From Escherichia coli (GTDB lineage Bacteria > Pseudomonadota > Gammaproteobacteria > Enterobacterales > Enterobacteriaceae): DNA of 64,000 bases. The first letter of the stretch is position 1. Each line of letters starts with the position of its first letter. The stretch lies in NCBI RefSeq assembly GCF_011045215.1, contig NZ_CP049201.1; one strand, 5' to 3'. Positions 36,001-42,000 of this stretch are shown in pieces. A program made the position numbers.

Positions 36001-39000
36001 CAGTACTGGATGGAATTTACCCCCACCAGTATGATGGATATTCCCGTTGGTCAGCAAAGCGTTATTTATAATGGCGAAATTTATAATCAGGAACTCACCG
36101 AAGTTGCTGAGTTAATAACTTCACCAGAAGCAATAAAAAATAATCTGGCAGTCGCTTTTCTGACGAAAATTATTTATCAGTGGATTTGTCTTATGTACGC
36201 AGACGGTAAAAAAGATCCACAACGGCGGCAAATTGAAAAATTAATTGCCACTTTACATGCCAGTCTGCAACAACGCTGGAGCGTAGCTGATATGGCTGCC
36301 ACGATCCCCTGTAGCGAAGCCTGGTTGCGTCGTCTGTTTTTACGCTATACCGGCAAGACGCCGAAAGAATATTACCTCGATGCGCGTCTGGATCTGGCGC
36401 TATCGCTATTAAAGCAACAAGGAAACTCGGTTGGCGAAGTCGCTGATACGCTCAACTTCTTCGACTCCTTTCATTTCAGCAAAGCCTTTAAACATAAATT
36501 TGGTTATGCGCCGTCAGCCGTGCTAAAGAATACGGACCAGCACCCAACGGATGCCAGTCCACACAATTAACGTAACTCTGGCCAGTACGCTTTGTTGGCC
36601 TCCAGCAACTCATCCAGAATAGCTTTGGCGACCGAGGCGCTCGGTACCGTTTTCGACAACGTAATCGCCTGCCACAGGTGCTGATATGAACGCTGTTCCC
36701 AGGCGTCCACGACCAGTTTTTCCACCGCCACTTGCTGACTCATTAACCCTTTCTGAAACTGCGGGATATCGCCGACCACCAGTGGTTCTGGTCCGTTGTG
36801 CCCGACCAGACACGGGATCTCGACCATCGCTTCATCAAAGTTATGAATTGCCCCGTTGTTAGGCACAATCAGCAACATCCGCTCCTGAGTGTTGAAGGCA
36901 ATTGCCGCCGCCAGATCGACGATGTATGACGCATGTTCGTCAATCTCCAGCTTGCCCGCCGCTGAATTTCCTGCCGCCGTAATGGCGCGGCAAGCATCGA
37001 AAACCTGTTTCTCGCGATGTTCCATCACCTCATTCGCGCGGGTATGTTCAGGGTTGGAATGCTGAACAACATAATCCGGGAAGAGATAATATTTCAGATA
37101 GGTGTTTGGTAATGTATCCGGGTCCAGTGCCTGGACATCCCGCGCTTTTGCATAGGTGTCGTTCCAGCTCGCTTCAGTATGCGTATCTTGCTGCGGTGGA
37201 ACATAACCGTGCTTAGAGACATATTGCCGCAGCTGGGGCATCAGGTCGTTGCCCTGCAAATCTTCAATTGATGTCCACCAGCCAAAGTGGTTCAGGCCGT
37301 AGTAGCGCACGCGCATCTGTTTGCGATCTTGCAGCCCAACAATTTGCGCCATCCGGCTTTCAATACCGATTGGCATGTCACAGATGTTGAGGATTTTCGC
37401 ATTCGGGCGCAGACGACGCGTGGCTTCTGCGACAATGGCTGCCGGGTTGGAGTAGTTGAGCATCCAGGCGTTTGGTGAATATTTTTCCATATAATCCACC
37501 AGTTCCAGGACGCCGCCAATGGAACGCATGCCGTACGCTATTCCGCCGGGTCCGCAAGTTTCCTGACCAACAACACCGTGGCGCAGCGGGATTTTTTCAT
37601 CCAGTTCGCGCATCGGGTACTTGCCGACGCGGATGTGCGCCATGACAAAATCAACGTCGCTGAATGCCACTTCAGGATCGGTGGTGTAACTAAACGCAAT
37701 GTCCGGCGCTTTTTCTTTAAGGATGACTTTACAGGCTTCGGCAATCACTTCCTGCCGCGCACCATCGTTATCATAAAATTTCAGTGCACGAAGCGGGAAA
37801 CGGTCCTGATTCGCCAGGAGCATCAACACGATGCCTGGCGTAAAGGTGCTTCCACCGCCTGCGACAACCACTGAGAATTTGGTCATTATACTGCCTCCGT
37901 AATGGCAACATTTTCTGCTGATTGATGAGAATTAATTAAGCTATCGAGCTGTTCACGCAGCTGGGATACATGCAGACCAATGATCACCTGAATGGCATCG
38001 CCACTACGGAAGACGCCGTGCGCTCCCAGCTTTTTAAAGACTTCGTCATCCAGCGTTTGTGACATGTCATGCAGTGCAATACGTAAACGCGTCGCGCAAT
38101 TGTTGATGCTGGAGATATTGCCGACCCCGCCCAGGGCTTGCAGGATACCGGCAGCCTGATCCAGCTCTTTTTTTGGCTCTGCCGCGGTGGTTTGGCCTCG
38201 CGAGGCTTTGTATTCGGCTTTTGAGTAGAGTTTCACTTCCGCATCTTCACGTCCCGGCGTGCACATGTTGAACTGCAGAATCAGGGTGCGGAAAACCACG
38301 AAGTACAGCAGGGTAAAGCACAACCCAATGGCGATTTGGGTCAGCATCATATCCGCGTGGTTGCTGAACATCGGGATCCAGTTTTGCGGTAAAACCTGGT
38401 CAATCAGACCTCCGCCCATGTTGCCCACCACACCAAAGAGATACATCACGGTCGACATTGAGGCCGCAAGCACAGCGTGTACCGCAAACAGCAACGGTGA
38501 AATGAACAGGAAGGTAAATTCCAGCGGTTCGGTAATTCCCACCAGCATGGCGGTTAAGGTTGCGGGAATCAACAAACCCGCCACTTTTACCCGATTTTCC
38601 GGTGCGGCAGTGAAGTACATCGCTAAAGAAATGCCCACGGCACCAAAGATTTTTGAGTTACCGTGCAGGGCAAAACCGCCTTCCGGGAACAACGATTTCA
38701 GCGGCTCGGCGCTCAAACTGAACTCTTGTAGATGCTGCGCCCAGTACATCTGAATGCCGCCTTCAACAGCTGCCGGACCAAAGATAAACGGTCCGTAGAT
38801 GAAGTGGTGTAAACCGGTTGGGATCAGAATACGTTCGAGGAAGGTGTAAACCCACACCCCAAGCGCACCCGCCGAACGCAGGAACGCTTGCAGAGATTCA
38901 ATCCCCATTTGTACTTTTGGCCAGCCGAGCAATGTTAGCCAGGCGCAGGGGATCATCACCAGGAAGGCGATAATCACCACATAAGACGTCCCCTGGAAAA

Positions 39001-42000
39001 TGCCGAGAAACACCGGCAGTTTTTTATCGAACAGACGGTTATGCAGCGCCGTCACAATGCCGGAAATGATAATTGCGCCGATAATGCTGGTATCGAGGGT
39101 TTTAATCCCGGCCATCATTGTCAGACCGCTACCTGCCACCGCGTCCTGAGTGAAATCGACGCCGAAGTAACTTCCCCAGGTCATTCCCATCGCATTGATG
39201 AAATAGTTCCAGGTCAGGAAACTCACCATCACCGCCAGACAAGCACGCCCCTGCGCTTGCTTAGCAAGGCCAATGGGTAAACCGACAGCAAAAATCAGCG
39301 GCATATTACGGAATACCGTCCAACCGCCCTCTTCAATAATGTGTACGATTTGCGCGAATAAACTGTTCGGATCGGTCAGTGATTCCCCGACAAACATCGG
39401 GTTTTGCAGCAAGATGGCAAGACCCACCACAATCCCGGCGAAGGGAAACAGCAGCACTGGCGTGAACATCGCGCCGCCAAAGCGTTGAATTTGACTGAGC
39501 ATTTCCACATCCTCTTTTCTCAATTCTGTAAGTAGGAAGCCTGATTGGTTATGCGGCAGGCCTGGAGCGAGGATAGGAAGATGCGATCGGCAGAACATGA
39601 CGACCCAATGGGATTCGTGATCGCTTTCATGCTTTTCGTTGGGCGTTAGAGATCTACGTTTTCGCGAAAAAGTAGACCTCTGTGAGCACAGGTACACAGC
39701 ATCGAACACATCTTTAAAAATAAGATGTTTTTTCAATCGATTAAGCAGAACTTGTGGGCGCATTACCCGGGCTTGCAGGCAAAAAAGAGATCTAGAGATG
39801 ATCTACAAAAGCATTGCGGAGCGGTTAAGAATTCGACTTAATTCCGCAGATTTCACGCTAAACAGCCTTCTTCCCGGTGAAAAAAAGCTGGCGGAAGAGT
39901 TTGCGGTATCGCGGATGACCATCCGTAAAGCCATTGACCTGCTGGTAGCGTGGGGGCTGGTGGTCCGCCGCCACGGCAGCGGCACTTACCTGGTGCGCAA
40001 AGATGTACTGCATCAAACCGCCAGTCTGACCGGGCTGGTGGAGGTGTTAAAACGTCAGGGAAAAACGGTCACCAGCCAGGTGCTGATTTTTGAAATCATG
40101 CCTGCGCCTCCGGCCATTGCCAGCCAGTTACGGATTCAAATCAACGAGCAGATCTACTTCTCCCGTCGCGTTCGTTTTGTGGAAGGGAAACCGCTGATGC
40201 TGGAAGACAGCTATATGCCGGTAAAACTGTTCCGTAACCTTTCGCTGCAACATCTGGAAGGGTCGAAGTTTGAATATATTGAACAAGAGTGCGGGATTTT
40301 GATTGGCGGTAATTATGAAAGCCTGACGCCGGTGCTCGCCGATAGACTGCTGGCGCGGCAAATGAAGGTAGCGGAACACACGCCACTGCTGCGGATCACC
40401 TCGTTGTCATATAGCGAGAGCGGGGAGTTTTTGAATTATTCAGTGATGTTCAGAAATGCCAGCGAATACCAGGTGGAGTACCATTTACGGCGACTCCACC
40501 CGGACAAGAGTTAACCGATACTCCAGAAGAGCACCGCCAGTAATTGGGGGGTGATAATGCGCAGGAACATCACTAACGGATAGACAGTGGCGTAAGAGAG
40601 CGCCGCCGCACCGCTGGTTGGATGAAGATTATTAGCAAACGCCAGCGCCGGAGGATCGGTCATGGAACCTGCCAGCATCCCGCACATGGTCAGGTAATTC
40701 ATTTTGGCTAACATCCGCGCCAGAATGCCAACAGTAATCAGCGGAACGGCGGTGATCAGGGCACCATAACCAATCCAGCTTAGCCCTTCGCCATTGACCA
40801 GGGTATTCACAAAATCCCCACCAGATTTCAGACCAACGACCGAGAGGAACAGCACGATCCCCAGCTCCCGCAGCGCGAGGTTGGCACTTGGCGGCATAAA
40901 CCAGTACAGCTTGCCGATACTGCCGATACGCCCGAGGATCAACGCCATAATGAGCGGACCGCCCGCCAGCCCCAGTTTCAACGCGGCCGGGAATCCCGGC
41001 ACAAAGACGGGAATAGAACCTAACAATACGCCAAGCCCGATGCCAATAAACACTGGCAGCATCTGAACCTGTTGCAGTTTTTGCTGCGCATTCCCCAGCA
41101 CATTGGCAACGGCATCAATTGCGGACGGACGCCCCACCAGGTTGAGGATATCGCCGAACTGCAGGCTGATATCGCCACTGGCGACCAGTTCGACCCCGGC
41201 ACGGTTCAGTCGCGAGATAACAACGTCATAGCGTTCTTTAAAATGCAGGTCGCGAATACGTTTTCCGAGCACGTTTTCATTGGTGACCACCACACGCTCG
41301 ACGCGCAAATCAGTGCCTTTCGTGGACAGCGAAGTATCGACCTCCTGACCAATCACCAGTTGCGCATTATGTAAATCCGCTGGCTGACCCACCAGATGCA
41401 GCAAATCGCCCAGTTGGATAATGGTATCTGGCGAAGGAACTTTTAGGGTTTCTTCGCGTTTCAGACGCGAGCAGATAATTTTGTCGCCGTTGAGAATCGG
41501 TACATCTTTAATGGCTAAATCATGCAGGTTAGGGTTCTCAACGCGAATATTGATAGTCCTGATCAGCGCGCCGCCATTGGTGCGTGAAGATTCGTGCTGC
41601 TGGGCTTCTGTCTCGACATTGACGCGGAAAATAACCCGCAACATCCACATGGTGAACAAAATCCCGCAAATGCCGAATGGATACGCCATCGCGTAACTCA
41701 TCCCCATCTGATCGACCATTTCCATTGGTGTACCCAGGTCGCGCAAGATCTGCTGCCCTGCCCCCAGCGCTGGCGTATTGGTAACCGCACCGGAGAAAAT
41801 CCCCAGCACTACCGGCAGTGGAATATCAAACAGTTTATGCAGGATGGCGGTAACCAGACCACCGATGATGACGATCAGAACAGCAAACAGGTTGAGGCGT
41901 AATCCGGAGACGCGCAATGAGGCAAAGAAGCCCGGCCCTACCTGAATCCCGATAGTATAAACGAACAGGATCAGGCCAAATTCCTGAATAACATGCAGCA

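Follow-up and report, generated by a model that had tools for sequence, protein, structure and literature searches.

An unbroken two-gene glv operon in an Escherichia coli genome, with a private one-codon deletion in glvG

Results

The glv operon and its neighbours

We analysed a 64,000-nucleotide stretch of Escherichia coli DNA (contig NZ_CP049201.1, assembly GCF_011045215.1), hereafter called the window, whose coordinates are used throughout, and focused on its glv locus, where two genes lie in tandem on the minus strand. The upstream gene (37886..39502, minus strand; 1617 nt) encodes a 538-residue EIICB permease of the alpha-glucoside type, belonging to the phosphotransferase system (PTS), and represents the unbroken form of what are annotated as glvC and glvB in E. 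coli K-12; it is a homologue of Klebsiella AglA and of Bacillus GlvC/MalP. The downstream gene, glvG (36567..37886, minus strand), encodes in one uninterrupted open reading frame (ORF) a 439-residue predicted 6-phospho-alpha-glucosidase of glycoside hydrolase family 4 (GH4), a homologue of AglB and GlvA and of the NAD+/Mn2+ type. The maximal ORF around the permease gene spans 37886..39763 (minus strand), and in E. coli annotations the gene begins with the ATG at 39502. At the junction of the two genes, the minus strand contains GAGGCAGTATAATGACC (also given as GCAGTATAATGACC), in which the TAA stop codon of the permease gene and the ATG of glvG share a single base at position 37886, forming the sequence TAATG. 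A Shine-Dalgarno sequence is located 7 nt 5' of both starts, AGAGGA in the case of the permease gene and GGAGG in the case of glvG. An original prediction, made from the sequence of this DNA, had described an uninterrupted 439-residue GH4 frame, a single IICB protein of approximately 538 residues and translational coupling of the two through TAATG; all of this is borne out at the positions it gave, with no frameshift in glvG and with EIIC and EIIB encoded by the same ORF.

The operon is flanked by two regulator genes. Convergent with glvG lies yidL (35677..36570, plus strand), encoding an AraC-family regulator, and divergent from the operon lies yidP (39798..40514, plus strand), encoding a GntR/HutC-family regulator that matches GntR-family NCBIfam models and is named yidP in homologous loci. 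Beyond yidP are yidE and ibpBA, and on the other side are yidK and yidJ; this gene order identifies the region as the E. coli glv locus. The palindrome TTAA at 36567-36570 is where the stop codons of these two convergent genes, yidL and glvG, overlap, leaving no spacer or terminator between them. The G+C content of the locus is 51–53%, like that of its flanks, and the locus occupies the same chromosomal site in all lineages, on which grounds we rejected a foreign origin.

Two lesions separate the K-12 locus from the window

The K-12 genes glvC, glvB and glvG (b3683, b3682 and b4556) occupy the same site between yidL and yidP, and the DNA they share with the window is approximately 99% identical to it. 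In the MG1655 annotation, glvG is a pseudogene of 815 bp, and glvC and glvB are separate genes encoding 368 and 161 residues, respectively, just as the original prediction had stated for K-12. It had proposed alignments with K-12 glvCBG and with Bacillus GlvA (described below), and the former confirmed that K-12 does not contain the same intact genes: relative to the window, the MG1655 glv genes carry exactly two lesions, neither of which is found in the window itself.

The first lesion is an amber codon in the permease gene. Codon 369 (38396..38398, minus strand) reads CAG (Gln) in the window and TAG in K-12, which splits the gene into glvC and glvB; apart from this change (Q369*), the window permease differs from K-12 only by P238Q. 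The second lesion is a 505-bp deletion in glvG, corresponding to 36789..37293 (minus strand) of the window, where the segment is retained; the deletion shifts the glvG frame and removes approximately residues 199–366, including H200 and Y263. The ends of the deletion lie in imperfect direct repeats, AGTGGTTC(T/A)GG(T)CCGT, and the K-12 junction is a hybrid of both copies, as would result from recombination or slippage between short repeats. The separate "glvC" and "glvB" genes and the glvG pseudogene owe their existence to an amber mutation and a repeat-mediated deletion and are not the gene structure of the species; the K-12 arrangement is a derived, decayed state, and the form in the window is the full-length, ancestral-type one.

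The intact operon is ordinary among complete E. coli genomes

We surveyed 5,426 complete E. coli genomes, 5,418 of which match some part of the glv region, with two probes, one of 61 bp in the permease gene across codon 369 and one of 101 bp within the glvG segment missing from K-12. The permease probe was found in 4,274 genomes, and in 3,222 of these the match was 100% identical, meaning that codon 369 is not amber. The undeleted glvG segment was detected in 1,649 of the 5,426 genomes (30%). By subtraction of the probe counts, roughly 2,625 genomes (~48%) have the permease gene together with a deleted glvG, and the deleted-glvG matches that were sampled all span the same 2,896 bp, corresponding to the 505-bp gap. 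The whole locus is absent from approximately 1,150 genomes (~21%); in one example, yidL runs directly into yidE, with glvG, the permease gene and yidP all gone.

Six genomes with an undeleted glvG were inspected, namely 14EC033, AHM8C212RI, the BL21 derivative Nico21(DE3), the O157:H7 strain 2-6-2, GF4-3 and 3059, and in all six a 1323-bp 6-phospho-alpha-glucosidase gene and a 1617-bp PTS gene are annotated with no pseudogene flag. Other intact E. coli (Nico21(DE3), O157:H7 2-6-2 and 14EC033) show the same gene order and the same coupling as the window, and their gene lengths are alike except for one codon in glvG. The intact glv operon is thus ordinary, and it is already known and annotated in public records. 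No permease allele is more common in public data than the exact 538-residue one of the window, which is indexed in 59,050 blocks of public assemblies and there adjoins either a 440-residue glucosidase or a truncated one.

Two side observations were made in these comparisons. Across positions 28000-48000, the best identity of the window to any of the complete genomes was 99.0% over 20 kb, and 99.4% over the glv locus; a best identity of 99.0% suggests that the source lineage is poorly represented in the collection, or that the source genome is not included in it. Separately, the 90%-identity protein cluster of the 440-residue glucosidase also lists 538-residue PTS permeases, both as members and as its representative, which probably reflects an artefact of the clustering, perhaps one arising from gene calls fused over the TAATG junction.

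Sequence features of the permease and GlvG

The permease scored 959.2 bits against the profile TIGR02005 (alpha-glucoside-specific IIBC; cut-off 607.3 bits), with residues 2–523 of the protein aligned to positions 1–524 of the profile. Its EIIC domain (PF02378, residues 10–346) precedes its EIIB domain (PF00367, residues 453–482), and no IIA family was matched in the protein in NCBIfam and Pfam domain searches. The motif NNCATRLR is present, whose cysteine is the phosphorylation site in glucose-family IIB domains.

GlvG matched PF02056 over residues 6–184 (223.6 bits) and PF11975 over residues 195–414 (181.4 bits), in both cases far above the cut-offs. No NCBIfam equivalog model passed its cut-off for this protein, the best being NF011657 with 173.9 bits against a cut-off of 486. 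Among enzymes of known structure, GlvG is 89.5% identical to the 6-phospho-alpha-glucosidase 6DUX (6DUX/6DVV; E=3.5e-274, 912.8 bits) and 73.0% identical to 1U8X, which is Bacillus subtilis GlvA (E=1.5e-223, 746 bits), with weaker similarity to the 6-phospho-beta-glucosidases 1S6Y (208 bits) and 1UP7 (143 bits) and to the alpha-glucosidase 1OBB (48 bits). We take 6DUX and 6DVV to be Klebsiella AglB, the structure entry giving the molecule name only. This ranking of similarities favours assignment of GlvG to the 6-phospho-alpha-glucosidases over the beta-specific GH4 enzymes or those that act on unphosphorylated substrates.

Next, GlvG was aligned with 72 diverse full-length GH4 representatives drawn from a search of 1.84 billion proteins. 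All strongly conserved GH4 residues are kept in GlvG (G10, G12, S13, R93, E109, N147, C169, D170, H200, Y263 and R283). The GxGS NAD+-binding motif corresponds to G10-G11-G12-S13; among the representatives, G10 shows no variation and G12 and S13 almost none. The columns of C169, H200 and Y263 hold Cys, His and Tyr, respectively, each in 70 of the 72 sequences. C169, D170, H200 and Y263 also align with conserved equivalents in 1U8X, which are Cys171, Asp172, His202 and Tyr265 in GlvA numbering. In GlvA, the Cys and His are Mn2+ ligands, the Asp and Tyr are catalytic, and the Gly-rich motif binds NAD+.

A private one-codon deletion in glvG

The 439-residue GlvG of the window is one residue shorter than the usual 440, a detail that the original prediction had missed. 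It equals the common 440-residue allele WP_000160112.1 minus one aspartate and is otherwise identical to it. The difference maps to an in-frame 3-bp deletion at 36831..36839 (minus strand), where GAT GAT GAA has become GAT GAA and one Asp of residues 351/352 is lost; other intact E. coli encode a GlvG with the sequence NFDDEAMVE at this point, whereas the window encodes NFDEAMVE. The deletion was found in none of the 1,649 genomes holding the segment, all of which align at no more than 97.1% identity, with 104 bases in the record versus 101 in the query. The exact 439-residue protein is recorded on one contig only, of 5,409,430 bp (QIF14501.1 / WP_164475889.1), compared with at least 1,000 contigs for the canonical allele, and an exact 36-mer over the deletion junction had no match in GTDB species-representative genomes, so that the source genome is not one of these representatives.

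The missing residue falls in a loop between strands predicted at residues 335–342 and 354–362. N343 and E356, at the two ends of this loop, show no variation across the 43 GH4 sequences aligned there (43 of 43). The extra loop residue is present in each of the five best solved homologues, which extend down to approximately 30% identity; the window GlvG is one residue short in the NFD-x-x-AMVE loop relative to 6DUX, and one residue short likewise relative to Bacillus GlvA. The type of residue at the deleted column varies widely among GH4 homologues, and the alignment indicates that the constraint on this loop is one of length and not of residue identity. AlphaFold2 gave a mean predicted local distance difference test score of 96.2 for the 439-residue protein and 96.6 for the 440-residue form, a measure of model confidence that is insensitive to single-residue deletions and says nothing about activity.

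Over 29.4 kb, the window differs from the closest complete genome by 322 substitutions and only two indels, none of them in homopolymers. So small a number of indels, with no homopolymer noise, means that the one-codon deletion is probably a real mutation, and for the same reason we largely rejected the idea that the indels stem from a noisy assembly.

A further private change, the second of the two indels, was observed in yidK, a minus-strand gene that encodes a 571-residue sodium:solute symporter in K-12. In the window, this gene is split into two ORFs (34173..35510 and 33790..34236) by a frameshift consisting of a 5-bp tandem duplication at 34235-34239 (CCCATAAT-ATAAT-GATG). Of the 5,114 complete E. 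coli genomes that contain the segment, not one has the duplication, the best identity of 95.0% corresponding to the 5-bp gap.

The region upstream of the operon

The permease gene and the divergently transcribed yidP are separated by an intergenic region of 295 bp (39503..39797) that contains a near-perfect 34-bp palindrome at 39648-39681 (AGAGATCTACGTTTTCG/CGAAAAAGTAGACCTCT), identical in K-12, which is a candidate operator, possibly for YidP. YidP is likely to be the local regulator of glv, because its gene is transcribed away from the operon and disappears along with the glv genes where the locus is absent. The CRP-like site at 39681-39696 is weak, with two mismatches, and is not significant, since the pattern gave 28 matches in the window versus 26 expected. 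No functional study of YidP or YidL was found in a literature search. The regulator of the Bacillus glv genes is the RpiR-type GlvR, in contrast to the GntR-type YidP and the AraC-type YidL found here.

Elsewhere, a perfect CRP consensus, TGTGATTCGATTCACA, was observed at 59492-59507, upstream of an ORF at 59863..61293 that we take to be tnaA from its size and its position after mnmE; if so, the site would be the known CRP site of the tna promoter.

Other observations in the window

The D-galactonate operon dgoTDAKR is missing at approximately 46376-46600, between cbrA (45255..46376) and yidX/yidA (47288..48100); in K-12, dgoTDAKR lies between cbrA and yidX. AHM8C212RI is annotated with the same dgo-less arrangement, including a small remnant of dgoT. 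The lengths of two intergenic T-runs are not those of the reference genomes: the one at 31738 is T8 here versus T7 in K-12, and the one at 23919 is T7 here versus T8 in AHM8C212RI.

Discussion

We interpret the glv locus of the window as a full-length, ancestral-type two-gene operon for PTS-dependent use of alpha-glucosides that is common in the species, has decayed in K-12, and carries the standard permease allele, and we place the probability of this interpretation at roughly 85%. By comparison with characterised homologues, the EIICB permease would import an alpha-glucoside while phosphorylating it at O-6. The general PTS chain would supply the phosphate to IIB by way of Crr, the glucose IIA protein, a donor suggested by the fact that the permease has no IIA domain of its own. 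GlvG would then cleave the resulting 6-phospho-alpha-glucoside by NAD+/Mn2+ redox-elimination, releasing glucose-6-phosphate and the aglycone; the oxidation-elimination route of the GH4 family, with its NAD+ and Mn2+ requirement, is summarised in PMC10628242. Likely substrates, judged by analogy, include isomaltose, maltitol, maltose, methyl-alpha-glucoside and sucrose isomers. The use of maltose or trehalulose that had been proposed for this strain would follow from homology to the Klebsiella and Bacillus systems only.

Both of these systems resemble the operon in the window. Klebsiella pneumoniae aglA/aglB has the same two-gene plan, an EIICB protein without IIA followed by a GH4 enzyme, and its glucosidase is 89.5% identical to the window GlvG over 439 positions. 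The B. subtilis counterpart is the maltose-6'-phosphate system glvA (malA)/glvC (malP), whose glucosidase is the GlvA protein compared above. According to PMC5309279, which cites Pikis 2006 and Thompson 2001, K-12 can grow on isomaltose, panose and other alpha-glucosides once it is given Klebsiella aglA/aglB or Bacillus glvA/glvC, and a crr mutant was unable to use alpha-glucosides through either gene pair, so that both systems depend on Crr when placed in E. coli. In the same article, the K-12 homologues are termed cryptic or truncated.

Several observations weigh against reading the locus as a system in use. A literature search found no report of expression, activity or alpha-glucoside growth for a native intact E. 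coli glv operon, and a crude scan of the 295 bp upstream detected no sigma-70 promoter matching the consensus. Identification tables generally list E. coli as forming no acid from methyl-alpha-glucoside, which would fit a silent or narrowly induced operon. The protein itself provides a further point, as the distance from G345 to E356 is 12 residues in the window GlvG compared to 13 in 71 of the 72 GH4 representatives. The constancy of this spacing, between the Asn of NxG and the Glu of VE(V/I)P, both of them invariant, was observed empirically for the family in the present alignment and is not a published criterion. With its loop shortened between the invariant N343 and E356, GlvG may here be impaired.

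The deletion appears to have arisen by slippage in the GATGAT repeat, and the odds that GlvG still works are roughly even. That the operon as a whole is fully functional and supports growth on alpha-glucosides such as maltose, trehalulose and isomaltose, with the loss of one residue being harmless, has in our judgement somewhat less than an even chance. Both ORFs are intact and preceded by good ribosome-binding sites, every catalytic residue is present in GlvG, and AlphaFold2 is equally confident for both forms of the protein and places the deleted residue in a loop, at a column that is variable among homologues. However, such confidence is blind to single-residue deletions, the loop length is constant in all but one of the GH4 representatives and in all five solved homologues, the allele occurs in one genome only and so has not been tested by selection, and expression of the native operon is undocumented in the searchable literature. 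The original prediction, which called the locus "apparently functional", can thus be retained in part: the ORFs are intact and lie close to characterised components of alpha-glucoside PTS systems, while the private loop deletion and the undocumented expression count against that description. Its presentation of the intact locus as something special is not sustained, given that the same arrangement is found in about 30% of complete E. coli genomes and is routinely annotated.

A second possibility, to which we likewise give a little under even odds, is that the deletion inactivates or cripples GlvG and marks the first step of the decay seen at this locus in most lineages, in which case the operon would be dead, or even harmful if the phosphorylated sugar accumulates. 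The altered spacing between N343 and E356 is consistent with this possibility, as is the repeated loss of glv within the species through the amber codon, the 505-bp deletion and the removal of the whole locus, and the adjacent yidK carries its private frameshifting 5-bp duplication in the same genome. On the other hand, the deleted position is unconserved and in a loop, and the remainder of GlvG is identical to a very common allele.

It is more doubtful that the operon is ordinarily silent at the level of transcription, as are the cryptic bgl, asc and chb systems of E. coli, and contributes nothing unless it is activated by mutation. This would agree with the failure to find a consensus promoter, with the weakness of the CRP-like site, with the lack of a reported phenotype in our literature search, and with the frequent loss of the locus, which suggests weak selection. 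Nevertheless, the promoter scan was a crude consensus search, the full-length coding sequences are highly conserved in approximately 1,650 genomes, and thousands of assemblies carry a nearly identical permease allele; such conservation of full-length glv genes argues for purifying selection and therefore for use.

Finally, we consider it very improbable that an error of sequencing or assembly created the 3-bp deletion, in which case 36831-36839 would truly read GATGATGAA and encode a 440-residue protein: although the variant stands in a single record, lies in the short tandem repeat GATGAT and is accompanied by a second private indel 2.6 kb away, the two indels set against 322 substitutions avoid homopolymers, where error-prone assemblies fail, and both are clean gains or losses of a whole tandem-repeat unit, as would result from replication slippage.

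Returning to the interpretation of the locus as a full-length, ancestral-type operon, a broader proposal can be made, although we regard it as unlikely. The three-state polymorphism of glv (intact, glvG-deleted and absent) could reflect niche-dependent selection for the use of dietary alpha-glucosides such as isomaltose, maltitol and sucrose isomers. The intact operon would then be a working and undescribed trait of strains like O157:H7 and BL21, and the loop deletion in the window would be either a fresh loss of function or a tolerated change.

For the biology of E. coli, K-12 is the exception at the glv locus, and the main value of the present analysis lies in correct annotation. An alpha-glucoside PTS that looks complete is present in approximately 1,650 complete E. 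coli genomes, BL21-type production strains and O157:H7 among them, and the literature search yielded no description of its native function. Function cannot be read from an unbroken ORF by itself: annotation pipelines pass the deletion-bearing glvG as intact. Native glv function would bear on the use of isomaltose and sucrose isomers both in industrial feedstocks and in the gut.

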